Assembly (NCBI GenBank): GCA_964354495.1
Contig: CAYHAA010000012.1
Coordinates: 30,001 to 62,000, forward strand
Direction of reading: 5' to 3'
DNA length: 32,000 nt
Source of the DNA: an uncultured archaeon
GTDB lineage: Archaea; Asgardarchaeota; Thorarchaeia; Thorarchaeales; Thorarchaeaceae
In this document: positions 4,862 through 11,816 of the stretch, in pieces
Numbering within the stretch: position 1 is the first letter of the stretch
Layout of the letters: each line of letters begins with the position of its first letter
Position numbers and translations under genes: made by a program
The notes under the pieces: model-generated
Databases searched by the model: none
The model's input: only the letters and a program-made list of their open reading frames with translations
What the model was told of the DNA's origin: nothing

Positions 4862-4883
4862 CCTGGCCCCGGCAGGGGCCAGG
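4862..4883. terminator. GC-rich hairpin between convergent genes (probable bidirectional terminator)
   Basis: CCTGGCCCC-GGCA-GGGGCCAGG, perfect 9-bp stem, 13 nt beyond the icd stop; no clear U-tract. Confidence 0.5.
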
Positions 4884-4896
4884 CCTACTTCAATCA

Positions 4897-6225
4897 CTAG
4901 AGGTTCTTTATAATCTCATCACTGAATTTTGTTGTCGATATGGGTTCAACTGGGGGTGTCAACTGGCGAGCAATATCATAGGTCACTTTCTTTGACTCTA
5001 CCGTCTTCGAAACTGCAGACCTGATGATTTTTGATGCCTCGCCCCATCCCATGTGCTCTAGCATCAAGCAGGCTGAAAGAATGATTGAGCCTGGGTTGAT
5101 CTCATTCTTCCCCGCATGTTTTGGAGCAGTACCATGAGTTGCTTCGGCGAAGAAGATGCTATCGTTGAGATTCGCTCCTGGTGCAAAGCCAAGTCCACCC
5201 ACTTGAGCAGCAAGCTGATCAGAGAGATAGTCACCATTGAGGTTAGGCATAGCCAGCACCTCATACTCCATTGGTCTAAGCAGGACCTGTTGGAACATTG
5301 CATCCTGAATCCGATCGTTGACTAGGATTTTTCCATCGGCAATTGCTTTCTTGACATCGCCGCCATACTTCTGGTTGAGTTCCTCCTCAGTGACAATGAC
5401 ATCTCTGAACTCCTCCTTGGCAACCTCATAGCCCCAGATCATGAATTGCCCTTCGGTAGCCTTCATGATGTTCCCTTTATGACAAATCGTCACAACATGT
5501 CTGTTCATTTTTATGGCATATTCAATGGCACTCCTTACAAGATTCTTTGAGTTTTCAGGGGACATGGGCTTGATTGATATGCCAGACGAATCTCGTAGAC
5601 TCTCGGAGTCAACTGGAACCTTCCATTCCTTTCTAAGGAAATCGATAATCTGTTTAGCCTGTTCAGAGCCTGGGTACGCCTCGATTCCAGCATAGATGTC
5701 TTCTAGGTTCTCGCGAAATACGACCATGTCTATTGCATCGGGGTCATTGACGGGAGCAGGAACACCCTTGATATGCCAAACAGGCCTCAAGCAGACACTC
5801 AGACTCAAGAACTGTCGAAGCCCAACGTTGATGGATGAAAACCCCTTACCAACAGGTGTTTCGCACGGTCCTTTTATGGCGACATGATATTCGCGTACTG
5901 CCTTCAGAGTGTCATCAGGCAGGTATGCCTTTCGTTGGTCTTGTGGTGATAGCCCTTTGAGCTGCTCATCAGTGATTTTGGGGTTATAGAGAGCACGAGC
6001 CTTATTCCCTGCATAGATCTCGAACCACTCAATCTTTCGTTTTCCTTTGTAGGCTTTCTGAACAGCTGCATCTACAACCTTCCGCATTACACTGCTGATT
6101 TCAGGGCCAATACCATCTCCTTCAATCCAACAAACAATCGGATTGTCAGGAACAATCCATTGACCATTCTTGACAACTATTTTCTTTCCCCTTTTTGGGG
6201 GTACCAGTTTTTCGTATTCGGTCAT
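4897..6225 (-). CDS. icd: Isocitrate dehydrogenase, E. coli/Archaeoglobus-type homodimeric, probably NADP-dependent
   Basis: PDNPIV.WIEGDGIGPEI, FRENLEDIYAGIE, HKGNIMKATEG, NLNGDYLSD, EATHGTAPKHAG, VTYDIARQ. ATG 6225 preferred; the longer ORF to 6312 overlaps aclA. Confidence 0.95.
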   Translation of the reverse strand: MTEYEKLVPPKRGKKIVVKNGQWIVPDNPIVCWIEGDGIGPEISSVMRKVVDAAVQKAYKGKRKIEWFEIYAGNKARALYNPKITDEQLKGLSPQDQRKAYLPDDTLKAVREYHVAIKGPCETPVGKGFSSINVGLRQFLSLSVCLRPVWHIKGVPAPVNDPDAIDMVVFRENLEDIYAGIEAYPGSEQAKQIIDFLRKEWKVPVDSESLRDSSGISIKPMSPENSKNLVRSAIEYAIKMNRHVVTICHKGNIMKATEGQFMIWGYEVAKEEFRDVIVTEEELNQKYGGDVKKAIADGKILVNDRIQDAMFQQVLLRPMEYEVLAMPNLNGDYLSDQLAAQVGGLGFAPGANLNDSIFFAEATHGTAPKHAGKNEINPGSIILSACLMLEHMGWGEASKIIRSAVSKTVESKKVTYDIARQLTPPVEPISTTKFSDEIIKNL

Positions 6226-6259
6226 TTCATGAACTCTCTCTTTTCTTTGAACTCGAATT

Positions 6260-8098
6260 CTATTTTGAGGTGTACAGAATCTCATCCCAGGGCTGTCTAT
6301 ATAGGTCTGCACGTTGCCTCTTCTGGTCGAAGATATGCCCCATCATCCCAATTGACCGCCCCAAAACGAACAACCCATTCAGCATCTCAGTATCCAGAAT
6401 ATCCTGCTTCTCTTCTGGAGACAAGTCGAGATTCTCCATGAGGTCCAAGAAGCAAATTCCTATACATCCGTCCACATTGAGAATCAGATTATTGCGCTTG
6501 ACAGTCGTCAATTTCTCAACTTCAAGTGCATAGTCAAGGTACGGATGGTTCGGGAAGTTGTTACGAACGAACTCCTTTAGCAGCTCAACGCGGACATCTG
6601 GGTTTTGTACTGATTTCACACGGTGCCCAATTCCAGGTATATTGATGCCTATTACGTCCTTCATGTAGTCAATGAACTCTTGTGGAGTCTTACCTGAATC
6701 ATGTGCGTCTTTGAAGTACTTTGCAGCATCTGAGATGGCTCCTCCAAATCTGGGGCCAATAGTCAGGATGCCAGAAGCCAATGAAGACATGAGATCTTTC
6801 CCTGCACGCGCAGCCACAATTGCATTATGTGCGCCTGAGACAGCTGGACCATGATCTGCAGTCAGCTTTAGCACGATTTCGATATACTTCTGACCAAACA
6901 GTGGGAGTTCCTTCTTGAACCAGAGATGACCTATCACATAGCCTATCGAGAGGTCTTCTCTGATGATTTTGTCAATTGGCACGCCATTATAGGTCAGCAC
7001 ATCGCCTGTTTCATTTGATATTGTGGTTACAACGTCAGTTGGTCTTCTTACAAGTCCTTTCGCAAGAGCTTTATTGAAATCCATGGGCAGCTCCGGTGGA
7101 GTGAACTCCTCTACGGATCCGATTTTTCCCTCCGACTTCAGCCTCTCGAAGGTCTCCCGAATCCTATCACCGAAGTCATCAAATGACTGTGGTACTATCA
7201 CACCAACGTCTGCCAGCGCTTTGTTCTTTGCATCGGCGGTTTCCATATCTGTTCCTGCCATGGCTCCTGCATGCCCAAACTGAACACCAGCTGGGAAGAT
7301 CTTAGCGCAGGTTCCTGTGACCCACATGACTAGTGGTTTTTTCACCTTCCCAACCTTGATGGCTTCAACGATTGCATACTCATCTCTCCCTCCGACTTCC
7401 CCTAGGCACACAATCATCTTGACTCTGGGGTTGGCTTCAAATCGTAGAATGTGATCAATTAATGTTGAGCCAGGATACCGATCACCACCAATTGCTACTC
7501 CTTCATAGATGCCATCGGAGTTCTGGGCAATCATGAAGAACATCTCATTGCTCATACCACCCGACTTCGACACGAATCCCACGCTTCCCGGTCTGTAGAG
7601 CTTTGATTTGATGATGTTATCAATTGTACCTGCAGTATTTGCTATCTTGAAGGCTCCTGCAAGAAGTCCTCCTACAGTTGCTGGTCCAATGATGATTTTC
7701 TTCTTCTTATCGGCTAATTCAATAAGTTCTCTACTCTGACGTTCTGGGATCCCCTCCGCGATAATCACAATAGTTCTGATTGTATCCGTTTCAAGGGCTT
7801 CCTTGGAGGTCAGAAAAGCAGATCTGAACGACGAGAAGTTGATCAACACATCAGCATTCGGATGTTTCTTTACGGCCAGATTCAGAGTCTTATAGATTGG
7901 AATCACAATCTCCTTGCTGCCCCAGAAGACCTTGTGATATTCCATGGCGCCTTCCTGTGAAGCACGAACTACAGCCGCTACACTGGGTGTACTTCTTTTG
8001 CAGACGAAATCGAAGTCGAGCATTCTTTGGATGGCATCGGCCTGAAAGCCATGGATGATTGCTTGAGTATTCCTGTTGAACAGATTGTACTTGTCCAT
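6260..8098 (-). CDS. aclA: ATP-citrate lyase large subunit (CoA-binding plus citryl-CoA lyase domains)
   Basis: QRMLDFDF, IGPATVGG, SKSGGMSNE, phospho-His motif QFGHAGA, ADHGPAVSGAHN, IPGIGHRVKS, LILNVDG, LNGLFVLGRSIG; 612 aa. Confidence 0.93.
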   Translation of the reverse strand: MDKYNLFNRNTQAIIHGFQADAIQRMLDFDFVCKRSTPSVAAVVRASQEGAMEYHKVFWGSKEIVIPIYKTLNLAVKKHPNADVLINFSSFRSAFLTSKEALETDTIRTIVIIAEGIPERQSRELIELADKKKKIIIGPATVGGLLAGAFKIANTAGTIDNIIKSKLYRPGSVGFVSKSGGMSNEMFFMIAQNSDGIYEGVAIGGDRYPGSTLIDHILRFEANPRVKMIVCLGEVGGRDEYAIVEAIKVGKVKKPLVMWVTGTCAKIFPAGVQFGHAGAMAGTDMETADAKNKALADVGVIVPQSFDDFGDRIRETFERLKSEGKIGSVEEFTPPELPMDFNKALAKGLVRRPTDVVTTISNETGDVLTYNGVPIDKIIREDLSIGYVIGHLWFKKELPLFGQKYIEIVLKLTADHGPAVSGAHNAIVAARAGKDLMSSLASGILTIGPRFGGAISDAAKYFKDAHDSGKTPQEFIDYMKDVIGINIPGIGHRVKSVQNPDVRVELLKEFVRNNFPNHPYLDYALEVEKLTTVKRNNLILNVDGCIGICFLDLMENLDLSPEEKQDILDTEMLNGLFVLGRSIGMMGHIFDQKRQRADLYRQPWDEILYTSK

Positions 8099-8099
8099 T

Positions 8100-9383
8100 C
8101 TACTTGACCCCCTTCAGCGCAATAGGAACAATTCTCGTCATATGGGTGTATCGATCGTAGACCTCGATGGGGACACCAATCTCTTTGCCTACATCCCGCA
8201 TGAGTTGAAGGCCTTCAGCTTCATTAGGTCCTCCACGTCTCACATAGATTCTGACATTTGCCTCCTTCAGCTTCTCTGCCGACCTTCGTAATGCGCTCAC
8301 AATTCCCTGAAACGTGGCTTTTACATCAGTGAAGTTAGCAATACCGCCGCCAATCAAGAGGAACTTGGGTTTCTTCTCTGGGTCCGGTTTCTCTGTCATG
8401 AGGTCTATGAGAGTCTGTGCATACAACTCGGTGTGTTCACGGGTGGGATTTCCACTGTATTCCCCATAGTTAGCCAGTTCATTGCCGAAACCAAGGTCAA
8501 CAATCGTGTCGGCATAGATGACGCTCGCACCTCCACCTGCGACCATTGTCCAGATGCGACCTTCCCTGTTAAGAATCGTAAGTTTCAAAGATGAACCAGT
8601 CTGCACCTGGAGACTCTGAATGAACTCCTCCTCTTTGGAGTGCTTTTGCCCGAAAGATACTGGGAACGCAATTGGATTCTCGGGATTTCCCCACGTGTCA
8701 GTATGTCTGAACGCAGCTGTGTCATCAAGGCGCGCTTTCATGTCCAATGGCACAACAAGACCGTCTTTTGTAATGGCAAATGGGTTGATCTCCAGAAATG
8801 CGAAGTCTTGCTCACAATATACTTGGAATAATCCCCTGATGAATGGGATGACAGAATGCGCCAGAGTACCTAGGCCCTTGATCTTGCTCTCCAAATCAAT
8901 GGCATTGATGTCTGTTCCAATAGGAATTGGAATATGGATTACCTTGTCCCAATTCTCTTCTACGAATACCCCGCCCTCAAAGGAGAAGTGGATAATGTCG
9001 TTCTTCCTGTCTGAGGTTATGGACACGTACAGCTCTTTCTCATGGGGAACAAATGGCTCCACTAGGAATCTAGTGAGCTTTCCCTTTGCTCCTCCAACCA
9101 CCATCTCTTTGCCCAGCTTTTCCTTCATGAACTGCTTCAATTCAATCAGGTTGGCATTGAGAAGAAGCAGGTTTGCCTTTCCCCGTTTTCCAAAGAGCTG
9201 GTCAGGTTTGGCTACTAGCTTGTCAGTCTTCAACCATGGATGGTCTTTCTCTAGTTTCGTCCATTTAGTGTCTGGAGTTATTACAGCGAGCTTTCGGTGG
9301 TATCTGAACTCTGGAAAGTGCTTCTCCAATTCATTAGCAATCAGTATCTTTGCTGAGTATTCATAGATTGATTTCTGTGCCAC
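8100..9383 (-). CDS. aclB: ATP-citrate lyase small subunit (ATP-grasp plus citrate-binding domains)
   Basis: KPDQLFGKRGK, LEINPF, LDDTA, RIWTMVAGGGASVIYADT, ANYGEYSGNP, GGGIANFTDV, RRGGPN. GTG start at 9383 gives the (M)AQKSIYEY N-terminus, with an AGGAGG RBS at 9391-9396. Confidence 0.92.
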   Translation of the reverse strand: MAQKSIYEYSAKILIANELEKHFPEFRYHRKLAVITPDTKWTKLEKDHPWLKTDKLVAKPDQLFGKRGKANLLLLNANLIELKQFMKEKLGKEMVVGGAKGKLTRFLVEPFVPHEKELYVSITSDRKNDIIHFSFEGGVFVEENWDKVIHIPIPIGTDINAIDLESKIKGLGTLAHSVIPFIRGLFQVYCEQDFAFLEINPFAITKDGLVVPLDMKARLDDTAAFRHTDTWGNPENPIAFPVSFGQKHSKEEEFIQSLQVQTGSSLKLTILNREGRIWTMVAGGGASVIYADTIVDLGFGNELANYGEYSGNPTREHTELYAQTLIDLMTEKPDPEKKPKFLLIGGGIANFTDVKATFQGIVSALRRSAEKLKEANVRIYVRRGGPNEAEGLQLMRDVGKEIGVPIEVYDRYTHMTRIVPIALKGVK

Positions 9384-9402
9384 TAGTATTCCTCCTACGG
9401 GT

Positions 9403-11349
9403 TCAGATTCCTCCCTCTCTGGTATAGTTGAGAAGGCCTCCCGCCAGAACAATGTTCTTCTCACGTTCAGTGAGCTCACATGTGATGGGTATCTTGATGC
9501 CCTTTGACTTATCAAGGGCAGACAAATGCGTCTTTCCTTCCTCGAGAGCCTGACGAACTCTCTTTATGTCAATGATGTCGCCTGAATCTATTTTCTCAAA
9601 TAGTGTCGCGTCGTCTATGGTACAGGGCAAGATTCCAAAATTGATTAGGTTAGCCTTGTGAATTCTGGCGAAAGACTTTGCGAGGACAAGCTTGACTCCA
9701 AGATACATTGGTGCCAGTGCGGCGTGTTCTCTACTAGACCCCTGACCGTAGTTGTTGCCGGCAAGTATGATGCCTCCACCCTTTTCTTTTGCATGCAAAG
9801 CTGTTGATACAAATGATGGATCCACTTGCTCAAAGACATGCATGCTGATCTCAGGTAGATTCGATCGCAATGGCAGTATCTTTGCTCCTGCTGGCATAAT
9901 ATGGTCAGTCGTGATACCATCTCCAAGTTTGATCAGCACCTGCATGGCCGCCAGATTGTCTGGAAGTGGTACCATCTTCGGAAGTTGGACGATGTTTGGT
10001 CCCCGTACAACCTCAACACTGCCAGGTGTGTCTGATGGCTTGACTATCATTGAGTCATCGATAGTGATTCTCAAGGGCATCTCAACTCTTGGGGATGGTC
10101 CGAGCTTTCTCGGATCCGTTATCTCTCCAAAGATGGCGGCCGCGATCGCGACCTCAGGACTTACTAGATAGACCTGAGCATCTGCAGTTCCACTTCTTCC
10201 TTTGAAATTGCGATTGAAGGTTCTCAATGACACGCCTGTCGAGGGTGGTGCAAAACCCATACCAATGCACGGGCCGCAGGCGCTCTCGAGAATTCTGGCT
10301 CCAGCTGATATCATGTCTGCAAGTTGACCATTCTCAGCGATGTACTCCAACACTTGACGAGAACCGGGTGAAACTCCTAGAACGGTGTTTGGATGTATCG
10401 TTCTTCCCTTGAGAAGCGCCGCTACTGTGAGCATGTCTTTTAGAGAGGAGTTGGTGCATGAGCCAATGGCAACCTGATCGACTTTCAATCCAATCAGCTC
10501 CGAGAGAGGAACAACATTGTCAGGTGAGTCTGGTTTTGCCACAAAGGGCTCAAGCTTACTCAGATCTATCGTGATGACTTCGTCAAAATCCTTCTCGTTG
10601 GCCTCCGGTATCTCTACCCAATCATGGGCTCTCTTTTGCGTCTTCAGAAACCCTCTTGTCACTTCATCCGAAGGAAAGACAGAGGTTGTTGCGCCAGTCT
10701 CAGCTCCCATATTCGTAATAGTAGCTCTTTCCGGGACAGACAGTTGCTTAATCCCCGGACCAAAGTACTCCAGTATCTTGTCTACTCCTCCGTCTACCTT
10801 TAGCCTTCGTAGAACCTCAAGAATCACATCCTTTGCTGAAACATACTCCGGCATCTTTCCATAGAGCTTTACACCAATGATCTCTGGTGTCTTCAGATAG
10901 TACGCTCCGCCTCCCATTGCCACTGCGACATCCAGGCCACCAGCTCCTATGGCAATCATCCCTGCCCCACCTGCTGTTGGCGTGTGTGAGTCCGAACCGA
11001 TTAGCGTCTCTCCCGGTTTCGAAAATCGCTCCAAGAACACTTGGTGACATATCCCATTTCCTGGTCTTGAGAAGAGAATGCCATACTTTGAAGCCACGGT
11101 TTGCAGGTATCGATGGTCGTCAGGATTTCTGAAGTCTGTCTGCAAAGTGTTGTGGTCAACAAATGAAACCGACAGTTCAGTTCGAACCTTCTCCAGGCCA
11201 ATTGCCTCGAATTGGAGATATGCTAGAGTTCCAGTAGCATCTTGAGTAAGTGTGCGGTCAATCTTCAGTCCAATTTCATCGCCAGGGTGAAGTGAAGCGG
11301 ACCCTGACATAACATGTTCAGATAGTATCTTTCTTGCAACTGAGGTCAT
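9403..11349 (-). CDS. acn: Aconitate hydratase (short ~650-aa type)
   Basis: TQDATGT, DHN, GICHQV, GSDSHT, [4Fe-4S] ligands GSCTN and CGPCIG, TFNRNFKGR, TTDHIMP, NYGQGSSREHA. Confidence 0.93.
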   Translation of the reverse strand: MTSVARKILSEHVMSGSASLHPGDEIGLKIDRTLTQDATGTLAYLQFEAIGLEKVRTELSVSFVDHNTLQTDFRNPDDHRYLQTVASKYGILFSRPGNGICHQVFLERFSKPGETLIGSDSHTPTAGGAGMIAIGAGGLDVAVAMGGGAYYLKTPEIIGVKLYGKMPEYVSAKDVILEVLRRLKVDGGVDKILEYFGPGIKQLSVPERATITNMGAETGATTSVFPSDEVTRGFLKTQKRAHDWVEIPEANEKDFDEVITIDLSKLEPFVAKPDSPDNVVPLSELIGLKVDQVAIGSCTNSSLKDMLTVAALLKGRTIHPNTVLGVSPGSRQVLEYIAENGQLADMISAGARILESACGPCIGMGFAPPSTGVSLRTFNRNFKGRSGTADAQVYLVSPEVAIAAAIFGEITDPRKLGPSPRVEMPLRITIDDSMIVKPSDTPGSVEVVRGPNIVQLPKMVPLPDNLAAMQVLIKLGDGITTDHIMPAGAKILPLRSNLPEISMHVFEQVDPSFVSTALHAKEKGGGIILAGNNYGQGSSREHAALAPMYLGVKLVLAKSFARIHKANLINFGILPCTIDDATLFEKIDSGDIIDIKRVRQALEEGKTHLSALDKSKGIKIPITCELTEREKNIVLAGGLLNYTREGGI

Positions 11350-11350
11350 T

Positions 11351-11506
11351 GCACGAGCGCCTTCTATTACTAGGTACTCCGAAACCTCCCTCTGTCGGAG
11401 GTCGGGATTTTCTCAATCTATCCCTTTCGGTGGGCTCATCCGCAACTAATAGACATAAATCCTTGCTGCTGCCCGCGGGATTATCTAATGCTGAATTTCC
11501 GCGTGC
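11351..11506 (-). ncRNA. Candidate structured leader RNA of the acn-aclBA-icd operon (no family assigned)
   Basis: Several hand-identified stems (7-bp closing stem, 9-bp hairpin with a 2-nt bulge, GNRA-capped hairpins, mutually exclusive pairings) in a non-coding stretch directly before the acn ATG. Confidence 0.3.
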
Positions 11507-11511
11507 TAGCT

Positions 11512-11643
11512 TCAATCAAGTTTGAACTGAGGAGGAGCGAAATTCACAATCTCAATCTTGCTGAGATCCTCCAATGCTCCAATCTCCCGGCGGTCCTTTG
11601 TACGCGCCAGATAGACTCGCGTGTAGAGTCTAGCGGCCTTCAT
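11512..11643 (-). CDS. Unannotated 43-aa ORF (MKAARLYTRVYLARTKDRREIGALEDLSKIEIVNFAPPQFKLD)
   Basis: ATG at 11643, TGA at 11512-11514. TATA-like CTTAATAC lies 23 nt upstream (leaderless spacing). Below the 60-aa cutoff of the ORF track. Confidence 0.4.
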   Translation of the reverse strand: MKAARLYTRVYLARTKDRREIGALEDLSKIEIVNFAPPQFKLD

Positions 11644-11666
11644 AATCTCAGGACGTTACTGACGTA

Positions 11667-11674
11667 GTATTAAG
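11667..11674 (-). promoter_or_regulatory. Putative TATA box CTTAATAC
   Basis: The same octamer occurs at 22092-22099 (minus) upstream of another gene start. Confidence 0.35.
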
Positions 11675-11703
11675 AGCATGCATTAAGAATCGTTAACTGC
11701 AAA

Positions 11704-11717
11704 AGATTGGCGCCAAT
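11704..11717. promoter_or_regulatory. Perfect 14-bp palindrome GATTGGCGCCAATC between divergent promoters
   Basis: Read directly; lies between the minus-strand TATA-like box (11667-11674) and the plus-strand TTTTAT (11765-11770). Confidence 0.4.
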
Positions 11718-11816
11718 CAAGGAATGCAACATTGAGGTTTTTGGCTACTGTCCAATGCGAAACATTTTATCCGGCAATCTTGAATCAACGCGACACCTCT
11801 TCGGAGTGACGGTACA

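Follow-up and report, generated by a model that had tools for sequence, protein, structure and literature searches.

The 32,000-nucleotide stretch of archaeal DNA analysed here (the window) carries on its minus strand genes for an aconitase (acn), the two subunits of an ATP-citrate lyase (ACL; aclB and aclA) and an isocitrate dehydrogenase (icd), which raises the question of whether these genes act as one unit and, if so, whether their products cleave citrate or make it. A preliminary description had read them as a self-contained operon in a possibly Asgard host. The encoded AclA was 96% identical to that of the Thorarchaeota MAG OWC2, and the host is indeed a Thorarchaeote, an Asgard archaeon.

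Organization of the operon and its products

The gene names, the common orientation and the reported gaps of 1-34 nt were all borne out by the coordinates and by profile matches, the sequence giving gaps of 19 nt (acn-aclB), 1 nt (aclB-aclA) and 34 nt (aclA-icd). The features are as follows:

11643..11512, minus strand: conserved small ORF (sORF) of 44 codons, within the 467-nt upstream region
11350..11816, minus strand: intergenic region of 467 nt, common to the operon and a divergent hdrA2-mvhD gene
11349..9403, minus strand: acn, 648 aa, first gene of the operon
9383..8100, minus strand: aclB, GTG start with an AGGAGG box ahead
8098..6260, minus strand: aclA, ATG start 1 nt past the aclB stop
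6225..4897, minus strand: icd, ATG start 34 nt past the aclA stop
4862..4883, minus strand: GC hairpin with a 9-bp stem and a 4-nt loop, 14 nt past the icd stop

The aclB frame extends to 9515, and the Pfam domain Citrate_synth_N begins at codon 2 of the GTG at 9383; this GTG, lying behind the AGGAGG box, is the likely start. For icd, the ATG at 6225 is likewise the likely start, although the ORF extends to 6312. The hairpin past icd (-26.5 kcal/mol, z -4.55; none of 200 shuffles folded equally well) probably marks the 3′ end of the transcript or stabilizes it, and a convergent gene lies beyond it. At the other end, the 467-nt region, 88% identical in contig L003, is presumed to contain a putative operon promoter and leader. 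The sORF product within it was 88% (L003) and 77% (L039) identical, and its first 23 residues recur next to hdrA2 in loci of genus g9.

The order acn-aclB-aclA-icd was repeated in other Thorarchaeota contigs (L003, L005, L006, L039 and L045) and genomes (G172, G002, G196, G054 and G164), amounting to at least 10 contigs or genomes, and contig L055 represents the aclA-icd end of the cassette; because of this recurrence, the gene order is not due to chance. Genes for Hdr proteins flank the cassette in both Thorarchaeal genera bearing it. With co-orientation, short gaps, an order kept in relatives, a presumed promoter region and a 3′ hairpin, the predicted operon was confirmed as real at the sequence level.

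Acn is a compact aconitase of the PRK07229/TIGR01342 type, scoring 931.8 bits with the aconitate hydratase model NF005558 (cut-off 612). Its alignment to pig mitochondrial aconitase (1ACO) showed that GSDSHT, GSCTNSS, ACGPCIG and GSSREH are kept, together with the three Cys ligands of the 4Fe-4S cluster and the catalytic Asp, His and Ser. AclB is the ACL small subunit, consisting of an ATP-grasp and a citrate-binding domain (PF24948, 228.9, cut-off 83; PF16114, 264.6, cut-off 26.8); it matched ACLY-A of Methanothrix concilii (6hxi_A) with 469.9 bits, the N-terminal part of human ACLY with approximately 363-366 bits and Chlorobium AclB with 188 bits. AclA is the large subunit, in which a Ligase_CoA (alpha-like) part (PF00549, 73.5) precedes a C-terminal, citrate-synthase-like citryl-CoA lyase (PF00285, 78.9); its scores were 815.8 bits with ACLY-B of M. 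concilii, 744 bits with human ACLY and 415 bits with AclA of Chlorobium. Its phospho-His loop GHAG (VQFGHAGA) aligns with those of M. concilii and human ACLY, the motifs ADHGPAVSGAHN, GIGHRVKS and NVDGCIG with the catalytic His and Asp of the lyase module are conserved, and the catalytic Asp that is changed to Ala in 6ZNW is kept. By profile, Icd is a prokaryotic type-I NADP-isocitrate dehydrogenase (TIGR00183, 568.1, only marginally above the cut-off of 567.3; NF005425, 527.4, cut-off 490), scoring 438 bits with the E. coli and A. fulgidus enzymes. The equivalents of Ser113, Lys344, Tyr391 and Arg395 (E. coli numbering) are kept and NADP is the predicted cofactor, although Tyr345 is replaced by His. 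Apart from this Tyr-to-His change at the NADP site, all catalytic motifs checked in the four proteins were intact.

AclBA is thus a predicted heteromeric ATP-citrate lyase (EC 2.3.3.8) of the Methanothrix/eukaryote type. Acn, AclBA and Icd would be three consecutive, individually reversible enzymes that interconvert 2-oxoglutarate + CO2 + NADPH and acetyl-CoA + oxaloacetate via isocitrate and citrate.

Distribution of the cassette and of other TCA-cycle genes

In a survey of 71 genomes of the host family, each at least 80% complete, AclB was found in 8, accompanied by an Icd orthologue in all 8 and by an Acn orthologue (70-100% identity) in 7; the remaining genomes had only a LeuC/HacA-like paralogue (31-36% identity to Acn), which is present as a separate gene in every genome of the family. 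About 90% of the family genomes lacked both aconitase and isocitrate dehydrogenase. Gene content therefore showed that acn, ACL and icd form a rare accessory cassette in this family, gained or lost whole, and the view of a self-contained module held, since the orthologues are co-present or co-absent in the 71 genomes. New are this joint presence or absence, the core status of TfrAB and KOR in the family, the presence of a citrate-synthase-family gene that does not follow the cassette, the lack of CODH/ACS in the cassette genomes and the lack of a close TfrA in ACL-rich Asgard families.

The C4 half of the cycle, comprising a thiol-type fumarate reductase (TfrAB), class I fumarase, succinyl-CoA synthetase and KOR-type oxidoreductases, was shown to be core to the family. 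TfrA occurred in 66 of the 71 genomes with 78-98% identity, including 7 of the 8 with the cassette, and Tfr is therefore strongly constrained alongside the cassette; a KorA-type protein was found in 67. With TfrA and KorA both core, the supply of 2-oxoglutarate is independent of the cassette. In the host genome, the fumarate reductase is the soluble thiol-type TfrAB (TfrB, 511 bits, cut-off 385; TfrA, 686, cut-off 718), FumAB and SucCD are present (FumA, 338, cut-off 276; SucD, 411, cut-off 336), and SucC is intact across a scaffold gap. Two KorA-type proteins exceeded the cut-off of NF006412 and fell below that of the 2-oxoglutarate synthase model (409 vs 579). A KOR-type 2-oxoacid:ferredoxin oxidoreductase operon begins 1.8 kb before the window, and in G172, G002, G196, G054 and G152 the genes for KorA and ACL share a contig at a distance of 9-26 kb; this KOR linkage and that of Hdr may have been inherited from a single ancestral insertion.

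Other steps were less certain. A PorA-like protein scored 485 (cut-off 550), and the malate dehydrogenase candidate is an Ldh_2-type dehydrogenase below all curated cut-offs (280 vs 500), no Ldh_1-type enzyme being found in the host genome search. A PycB/OadA-type carboxyltransferase with a biotin carrier is encoded, for which the search found no partner subunit and no adjoining OadB-type pump subunit; nor did it find a PEP carboxylase. Glutamate dehydrogenase (GDH) and [NiFe] hydrogenases are also encoded. With the cassette as an add-on, the host genome has candidates for nearly every step of the reductive TCA (rTCA) cycle and nearly all steps of the TCA cycle, KOR being the putative 2-oxoglutarate enzyme.

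The statement that citrate synthase and other TCA-cycle genes are missing holds within the window and not beyond it: besides the KOR operon, contig C13 carries a citrate-synthase-family gene (PF00285, 224.6, cut-off 27). Its product aligns a His-His-Asp triad to the Thermus thermophilus citrate synthase 1IOM, and it is divergent, falling below every NCBIfam citrate-synthase cut-off (best 184 vs 421). This gene is present in most family genomes without aconitase and isocitrate dehydrogenase and is therefore not tied to the acn-ACL-icd pathway. CdhC, sought as the marker of CODH/ACS, was absent from the host genome (97.7% complete) and from all 8 cassette genomes, compared with 36 of the other 63 in the family having it (Fisher p = 0.002, uncorrected for kinship); the exclusion of CODH/ACS by ACL in Thorarchaeota rests on two, perhaps one, independent lineages.

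The comparison was extended to 251 Asgard genomes. ACL was found in 40 of 61 genomes of the Lokiarchaeia-like family f9, 16 of 18 of f21 and 4 of 4 of f22, and a close TfrA in none of 85 in these ACL-rich families, whereas family f1 showed the reverse (ACL 6/65, TfrA 61/65). The Thorarchaeal lineage is therefore among the few with both halves of the cycle. In f9, 56 of the 61 genomes had CdhC, which mostly co-occurred with ACL, and the exclusion of CODH/ACS is therefore not phylum-wide. In many Loki-type genomes, including a single-contig one of 4.4 Mb, the AclA-type domain was the only citrate-synthase domain and a true citrate synthase was missing; most of these genomes had CdhC. Loki-, Heimdall-, Hod- and Hermod-type Asgard archaea (including Promethearchaeum syntrophicum MK-D1), in which ACL is common in contrast to its rarity in the Thorarchaeal family, carry orthologous AclA (72-76% identity), AclB and Acn (66-71%). 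As in Thorarchaeota, acn and a gene of the IDH family usually accompany their aclBA in a cluster, but the IDH-family gene is only 26-30% identical and below all curated cut-offs, whereas Thorarchaeota have a canonical NADP-dependent enzyme.

A different arrangement was seen in f25, an Asgard family without ACL, in which an operon icd-acn-citDEF encodes Icd with 56-57% identity to that studied here (TIGR00183, 632 bits) and Acn of the same compact type with 47% identity. CitF, the alpha subunit of the ACP-dependent citrate lyase, is co-oriented with Icd and Acn. This lyase, CitDEF, needs no ATP and releases acetate, whereas the Thorarchaeal ACL yields acetyl-CoA. The ACP-dependent citrate lyase is, to our knowledge, known solely as a citrate splitter.

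Direction of the pathway

We favour, tentatively and with a probability of about 0.45, the reading that the cassette of this lineage works chiefly as a reductive pathway that cleaves citrate. 2-Oxoglutarate would come from the core TfrAB/SucCD/KOR branch, or from glutamate via glutamate dehydrogenase; Icd would carboxylate it reductively to isocitrate, Acn would convert isocitrate to citrate, and AclBA would cleave citrate to acetyl-CoA and oxaloacetate at the expense of 1 ATP. A full reductive TCA loop would thereby be closed in a genome without CODH/acetyl-CoA synthase. A plausible role of the Hdr complexes encoded nearby would be to provide reduced ferredoxin and to recycle the disulfide that Tfr produces. 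The loop could serve either to fix CO2 or only to convert 2-oxoglutarate derived from glutamate to acetyl-CoA, leaving less reducing power for disposal. In favour of cleavage are the intact enzymes, the conserved synteny, the behaviour of the cassette as a whole, the core C4 half with candidates for most rTCA steps, the lack of CdhC in the cassette genomes, the linkage to KorA and the flanking Hdr genes; by analogy, the pairing of Icd and Acn of the same type with the citrate splitter CitF in f25 points the same way. Against it, the sequence does not reveal a direction, and ACL, aconitase and NADP-dependent isocitrate dehydrogenase are all reversible; the exclusion of CODH/ACS fails in f9; the malate dehydrogenase candidate, the substrate of KOR and the anaplerotic carboxylase are uncertain; the KOR and Hdr linkage may reflect one insertion; and the 2 ATP that the rTCA cycle spends on each acetyl-CoA are hard to afford for a presumed fermenter.

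The opposite direction, in which AclBA would replace citrate synthase as an ATP-conserving enzyme (acetyl-CoA + oxaloacetate + ADP + Pi to citrate + ATP + CoA) and Acn and Icd would complete an oxidative partial TCA branch to 2-oxoglutarate and NADPH for glutamate synthesis, was also raised in the preliminary description, and we consider it possible but somewhat doubtful. The reaction is near equilibrium, and the route yields ATP and NADPH, in contrast to the reductive branch, which costs ATP and reduced ferredoxin. Precedents have been published: in Desulfobacter postgatei, ACL works in the citrate-forming direction (Moller et al. 1987, as cited in PMC12137691), and a citrate-forming ACL was proposed for ANME-1 and ANME-2c and read into the partial TCA branches of methanogens and ANME (PMC9012536). 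Those branches use the same three enzymes and show the same either-or of an oxidative (ACL) and a reductive (Tfr) branch, but no ANME genome had all steps (PMC9012536), whereas the Thorarchaeal genome has candidates for both halves. In Asgard archaea, ACL is common without a close TfrA and rare where TfrA is core, which fits two alternative routes to 2-oxoglutarate; since this split matches the oxidative versus reductive pattern, and many of the ACL-bearing Loki-type genomes have no true citrate synthase and mostly have CdhC, the orthologous Thorarchaeal cassette may likewise make citrate. This reading is weakened, however, by the near-complete set of rTCA candidates (two KorA-type oxidoreductases, TfrAB, FumAB, SucCD, and the Ldh_2-type, POR-like and PycB-type proteins). 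The cassette would be redundant, because 2-oxoglutarate is already covered in the family and TfrAB and KOR are retained alongside the cassette. A replacement of citrate synthase is also harder to maintain beside a citrate-synthase-family gene with an intact triad, although that gene is common where aconitase and isocitrate dehydrogenase are lacking, and f25 pairs the same types of Icd and Acn with a cleave-only lyase. Synthesis by a non-hydrolytic enzyme would also suffer from the usually very low oxaloacetate concentrations.

An operon of a cleaving enzyme, aconitase and isocitrate dehydrogenase would also make citrate a shared node, from which imported citrate could pass through AclBA to acetyl-CoA and oxaloacetate for energy and carbon and through Acn and Icd to 2-oxoglutarate for nitrogen assimilation. 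In its lyase part, the f25 operon is similar to loci for citrate fermentation in bacteria, and a PycB/OadA-type carboxyltransferase exists, yet no OadB-type subunit adjoins it, no citrate transporter lies within or beside the operon (transporter-like genes in the window are limited to a pair for an ABC-2 exporter and one for an AEC-family protein at a distance of 18 kb), ACL consumes ATP where citrate fermenters use an ATP-free lyase, and free citrate is scarce in anoxic sediments; such use of citrate is improbable. Still less credible is another tricarboxylate, such as homocitrate or 2-methylcitrate, as the substrate. The aconitase and IDH superfamilies do include homoaconitase and homoisocitrate dehydrogenase, and the IDH-family gene past aclA in other Asgard classes is below all curated cut-offs, but here all three enzymes reach equivalog cut-offs for citrate enzymes, Icd scores 438 bits with the E. 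coli enzyme and keeps the substrate and NADP residues checked (Tyr345 excepted), the citrate-binding and lyase motifs of AclA and AclB match those of solved ACLs, and the LeuC/HacA-like paralogue is a separate gene.

Within the favoured cleavage direction, a bolder version, which we regard as unlikely, holds that cassette-bearing Thorarchaeal lineages without CODH/ACS run a complete rTCA cycle with a eukaryote-type ACL, a methanogen-type Tfr, and KOR and POR that depend on ferredoxin. Hdr complexes on the flanks would recycle the Tfr disulfide and bifurcate electrons to ferredoxin. If true, CO2 fixation by the rTCA cycle would be a first for Asgard archaea, and the cycle would be energized in a manner undescribed for any rTCA organism.

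Relation to other ATP-citrate lyases

The best solved match to the Thorarchaeal AclBA was the M. concilii ACLY-A/B (6HXI, 6ZNW), which has the same two-subunit architecture and aligns in all catalytic motifs, although M. concilii, unlike the present host, is a methanogen; its structure is reportedly due to Verschueren and colleagues in 2019 (listed among the references of PMC9088280). Human ACLY (6HXH, 6POE) is a single fused chain, in contrast to the separate AclA and AclB here. The AclBA proteins of Chlorobium (6HXJ) and other autotrophic bacteria share the reaction and the domain order of the Thorarchaeal enzyme and work with KOR and fumarate reductase, but the Chlorobium proteins are distant (415 + 188 bits), lying on a long separate branch of the tree, and the fumarate reductase of the Thorarchaeal host is of the soluble thiol type found in methanogens and not a quinol enzyme.

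The operon had been expected to bear on the origin of eukaryotic cytosolic ACLY. This angle is retained, because both subunits resemble Methanothrix and human ACLY closely and the Chlorobium proteins only distantly. In the tree, however, the Asgard clade was monophyletic (100/100 support) and the eukaryotic clade adjoined a clade of Asgard plus one Anaerolineae sequence (91/91), placing eukaryotes beside the Asgard clade and not within it. In larger trees, eukaryotic ACLA/B and ACLY group with DPANN and Thermoplasmatota-E3 (PMC11976288). The question of eukaryotic ancestry is already in print (PMC11976288; bioRxiv 10.1101/2022.10.25.513756). The presence of ACL in Asgard archaea, the eukaryote-like type of ACL and forward-running archaeal ACL have been published, and operons of this kind are known in Asgard. 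The accompanying Acn and Icd differ from the eukaryotic cytosolic ACO1 and IDH1 types, TIGR00127 giving only 20 bits.

Organisation of the citrate operon and its enzymes

ORF listing and profile scans of the window located four co-oriented genes on the minus strand, acn, aclB, aclA and icd, encoding aconitase, the two subunits of ATP-citrate lyase (ACL) and isocitrate dehydrogenase (IDH), as the preliminary description had claimed. The starts of the last three genes were read at 9383, 8098 and 6225; therefore, the intergenic gaps were 19 nt (acn-aclB), 1 nt (aclB-aclA) and 34 nt (aclA-icd), in agreement with the 1-34 nt given in that description.

Features of the operon and its flanks (window positions; profile scores in bits)
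467 nt, upstream region, common to the acn operon and the divergent hdrA2-mvhD gene
11349..9403, minus strand, acn, 648 aa; NF005558 931.8 (cut-off 612)
Start GTG 9383, minus strand, aclB, AGGAGG box ahead of the start; PF24948 228.9, PF16114 264.6
Start ATG 8098, minus strand, aclA, Ligase_CoA and citrate-synthase-like domain
Start ATG 6225, minus strand, icd; TIGR00183 568.1 (cut-off 567.3), NF005425 527.4 (cut-off 490)
14 nt past the icd stop, 9-bp GC hairpin, -26.5 kcal/mol, z -4.55; then a convergent gene

Over its full length, AclA aligned with both Methanothrix concilii ACLY-B and human ACLY (815.8 and 744 bits, respectively), whereas its match to Chlorobium AclA was far lower (415 bits); AclB ranked in the same way (470, 366 and 188 bits for M. 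concilii, human ACLY and Chlorobium, respectively). Alignments revealed that the phospho-histidine loop (GHAG) of AclA is conserved, as are its lyase motifs, with the Asp mutated in PDB 6ZNW among them, and that Acn had kept the three cluster cysteines and the catalytic residues of mitochondrial aconitase. Icd scored 438 bits against the NADP-IDH of E. coli and Archaeoglobus, with S113, K344, Y391 and R395 kept and a Y345H change. The analysis shows a functional-looking, reversible module, predicted to be co-transcribed, whose three steps would interconvert acetyl-CoA plus oxaloacetate and 2-oxoglutarate and which is accessory in the family. The Thor operon as such was nowhere described in the literature searched.

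AclA shared 96% identity with its counterpart in Thorarchaeota MAG OWC2; its identity to the Loki-, Heimdall-, Hod- and Hermod-type AclA, including that of P. syntrophicum MK-D1, was 72-76%. A recent foreign origin of the cassette was unsupported, since the GC content of the operon (47.2%) matched that of the genome (47.7%), no step in composition was seen, and Thor AclA formed a single clade within a monophyletic Asgard group.

Hdr genes were abundant in the window (hdrCB, a fused hdrA2-mvhD, a second hdrCB and a second hdrA-like gene), and a four-subunit operon for a 2-oxoacid:ferredoxin oxidoreductase (OFOR) of the KOR type was located immediately ahead of it (L071 7740-14181, i.e. G000:C12:21740-28181 of the host assembly). 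The delta-alpha and beta-gamma genes of this operon were parted by an insert of ~3.4 kb containing an epimerase, a Ras-family GTPase and a 554-aa ORF without Pfam match, and a 2-hydroxyglutaryl-CoA-dehydratase-like pair with its activator adjoined the operon. It was also noticed that a 44-codon sORF (MKAARLYTRVYLARTK...) lies between hdrA2 and acn (11512-11643, minus strand), its product having 88% and 77% identity to counterparts in two related Thor contigs. Its first 23 residues were found again in loci of g9, the second cassette-bearing Thor genus, and in both the window and the g9 loci it was ~175 nt from, and divergent to, the hdrA2 start; in locus L039 it sits after icd, not before acn.

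Remaining cycle genes and distribution among Asgard genomes

In the host assembly (3.30 Mb, 51 contigs, completeness 97.7%), we looked for the genes which the preliminary description had named as bearing on direction. Fumarate reductase was located in a fumA-fumB-tfrA-tfrB cluster for the thiol-type enzyme TfrAB (TfrB 511 bits, cut-off 385; TfrA 686, cut-off 718; FumA 338, cut-off 276). The eight OFOR alpha subunits comprised two PorA-like, two KorA-type, one OAFO-type and three IOR proteins, and the KorA-type ones, scoring above the NF006412 cut-off, are candidates for 2-oxoglutarate:ferredoxin oxidoreductase. As to Mdh, no LDH/MDH-family enzyme was found in the genome, and the one candidate, an Ldh_2-family dehydrogenase, scored under the cut-offs. 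CdhC, the marker of CODH/acetyl-CoA synthase, was likewise not found, so the acetyl-CoA synthase of the Wood-Ljungdahl (WL) pathway was not detected in the genome. Genes for SucCD (SucD 411, cut-off 336), glutamate dehydrogenase and [NiFe] hydrogenases were present, and no archaeal PEP carboxylase was found in the genome. The oxaloacetate decarboxylase Na+ pump was considered as a possible sign that citrate is cleaved; a biotin carrier, encoded separately, and a thiolase adjoined the PycB/OadA-type carboxyltransferase gene, and neither OadB nor PycA was found beside it. An apparently broken sucC (L066 ~1941-2046, G000:C16) was dismissed as an assembly artefact, because the six-frame split coincided with a 100-N scaffold gap having an 18-residue duplicated flank.

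As to citrate synthase, a divergent gene of the family does exist on contig C13, where it adjoins type I GAPDH (L001 1441-2493, i.e. G000:C13:6382-7434). Its 350-aa product had a Pfam score of 224.6 bits and an intact His-His-Asp triad relative to T. thermophilus citrate synthase, and it scored under every NCBIfam citrate-synthase cut-off. Genes of this type occurred in 43/65 family genomes irrespective of aconitase and IDH, most of these genomes being without both, so the protein is not a partner of the acn-aclBA-icd pathway.

The host's family was compared over 71 genomes, each at least 80% complete. AclB was found in 8 of them and an Icd orthologue also in 8/71; seven of the AclB genomes had a full-length Acn orthologue (70-100% identity), and all other family genomes had only a LeuC/HacA-like paralogue of 31-36% identity. 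In five genomes (G172, G002, G196, G054 and G164) the cassette genes were contiguous and in identical order. Given this joint presence and order, the cassette behaves as one accessory unit, carried by about 10% of the family genomes in a subclade of the host genus and in genus g9. By contrast, TfrA (66/71, 78-98% identity) and the KorA-type gene adjoining the window (67/71) belonged to the family core. CdhC occurred in 36/71 family genomes and in none of the 8 with the cassette; within the host genus it was in 0/3 cassette genomes versus 19/23 others, these being raw counts, uncorrected for kinship, that reflect one or two events. The exclusion of CdhC by the cassette holds only within the Thor family, where it rests on one or two lineages.

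Phylum-level controls covered 251 Asgard genomes, of which 71 had ACL, concentrated in families f9 (Lokiarchaeia-like, 40/61), f21 (16/18), f22 (4/4, including a 4.4-Mb single-contig genome) and f20. CdhC was almost universal in f9 (56/61), and at least 33 of the 40 ACL-positive f9 genomes also had a strong CdhC match; this coexistence of ACL and WL refutes replacement of WL by ACL as a general Asgard rule. A close TfrA was found in f1 (61/65) and a few small families, and in none of the 85 genomes of f9, f20, f21 and f22. The ACL and Tfr arms are thus near-complementary across Asgard families, mostly alternatives, a pattern that has also been described in methanogens and ANME; the window's lineage, which combines the two, is unusual. 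A true citrate synthase was not found in many ACL-bearing Loki-type genomes. The IDH-family protein encoded past aclA in Loki-, Heimdall- and Hod-type loci was a different one (26-30% identity, under all cut-offs).

A search of the Asgard genomes located CitF in f21 and f25. Three f25 genomes in which ACL was absent (G247, G213 and G115; L085 5047-11322, L088 and L089) had one CitF copy in an icd-acn-(~1.5 kb)-citF run. The Icd and Acn in these runs were 56-57% and 47% identical to those of the window and of the same types (NADP-IDH and compact aconitase), co-oriented with the ACP-dependent citrate lyase; an Icd-Acn pair of one type is therefore coupled to ACL in some genomes and to the ACP-dependent lyase in others. 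To our knowledge, citrate cleavage is the only activity known for the latter enzyme. Separately, frames of 711-750 aa in f5, f16, f21 and f25 (e.g. G073:C48:8373-9374 and G012:C36:80112-81119) contained a full divergent citrate-synthase domain (113-157 bits) fused to a further domain, and in several f21 genomes they were within ~100 nt of the CitF gene.

Direction of the pathway

ACL in Asgard archaea has been read as a marker of the reductive TCA cycle (rTCA) (PMC6646929), an "incomplete TCA cycle" was reported for Loki- and Thorarchaeota (PMC6737245), and the idea of ACL running forward has also been published (PMC9012536). We tentatively favour the citrate-cleaving, reductive direction, with a probability of roughly 0.45, in which Icd, Acn and AclBA would convert 2-oxoglutarate to acetyl-CoA and oxaloacetate. 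Consistent with cleavage, the supply of 2-oxoglutarate in the family is covered already without the cassette, TfrAB and KOR are kept under strong constraint in the cassette genomes, nearly every step of the cycle has a candidate in the genome, CODH/ACS is missing in every family genome with the cassette, KOR and Hdr genes are linked to the cassette, and the CitDEF variant of f25 points the same way. Even if citrate is cleaved, a full autotrophic rTCA cycle is unlikely.

Operation of ACL as the citrate-synthesising step toward 2-oxoglutarate is a somewhat less probable alternative, to be taken seriously. The cassette is orthologous to modules of Lokiarchaeia that lack citrate synthase and Tfr and possess WL, across the phylum ACL and Tfr occur as alternatives, the forward reaction has published precedents (ANME, and Desulfobacter postgatei as cited in PMC12137691), and the energy balance is better for this route. 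A role as a hub of citrate utilisation appears improbable, and that the enzymes act on another substrate more improbable still.

Already known are the Asgard ACL, its reading as an rTCA marker, its tie to eukaryotic ACLY and the proposal of a forward-running ACL (PMC6646929, PMC11976288, bioRxiv 10.1101/2022.10.25.513756, PMC9012536). New here are 1) the presence/absence pattern of the whole unit, 2) the complementarity of ACL and Tfr, 3) the local exclusion of CdhC, which failed as a general rule, and 4) the check on the CitDEF variant; the window yielded no new enzyme. The citrate arm of Thorarchaeota is a cassette, optional as a whole unit, over a methanogen-like reductive C4 branch, and a small set of lineages joins the ACL and Tfr arms and has lost the WL acetyl-CoA synthase. 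Sister genomes with and without the cassette, taken from the same sediments, offer a concrete and testable contrast for the direction of archaeal ACL, and Asgard central-carbon handling enters every model of the archaeal host of the eukaryote.

AclA phylogeny and eukaryotic ACLY

Few cytosolic enzymes of eukaryotes have close relatives in Asgard archaea; ACL is one of them, and a bearing of the operon on the origin of eukaryotic ACLY had been proposed. A tree was built from 44 AclA-type sequences (LG+C20+F+G4 PMSF, 615 columns). The Asgard clade was monophyletic (100/100) and contained the Thorarchaeota in a single sub-clade (99/98); an Anaerolineae sequence was sister to the whole (99/98). 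The eukaryote clade (fungi, animals and a dinoflagellate), together with the metagenome protein P0121, neighboured Asgard plus Anaerolineae (join 91/91), and Chlorobiaceae AclA was on a long remote branch, one DPANN representative being likewise distant. Eukaryotic ACLY was therefore neither nested in Asgard nor specially near Thorarchaeota. The proposal holds insofar as Asgard ACL, distant from that of Chlorobiaceae, is by this tree of the eukaryote-like type, yet eukaryotes branch outside the sampled Asgard lineages. The sequences came from a set clustered at 50%, in which those of Methanothrix and Thermoplasmatota were merged or hidden, so the neighbour of eukaryotic ACLY in this tree may not be its true sister group. 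These data on eukaryote origin repeat what is published: eukaryotic ACLA/B was placed with DPANN and ACLY with Thermoplasmatota-E3 (PMC11976288), and Asgard-eukaryote monophyly was not recovered (bioRxiv 10.1101/2022.10.25.513756).

P0121 grouped with the eukaryote clade at 100/97. This protein and P0012-P0027, all from metagenomes, were 1000-1040 aa long and consisted of two tandem AclA copies without the AclB part, the first with degenerate lyase motifs (ADRDPQASGATN, GHCTYS) and the second intact. A contig labelled Nanopelagicaceae (Actinomycetota) (L026, DATKTW010000007.1) carried an AclA 73% identical to that of the window and inside the Asgard clade; the label is probably due to mis-binning. 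The Anaerolineae locus that is sister to all Asgard AclA (L040, JAVEWB010000045.1) had acn...aclB-aclA with 58, 52 and 63% identity, respectively, and it is possible that these genes reflect an inter-domain transfer.
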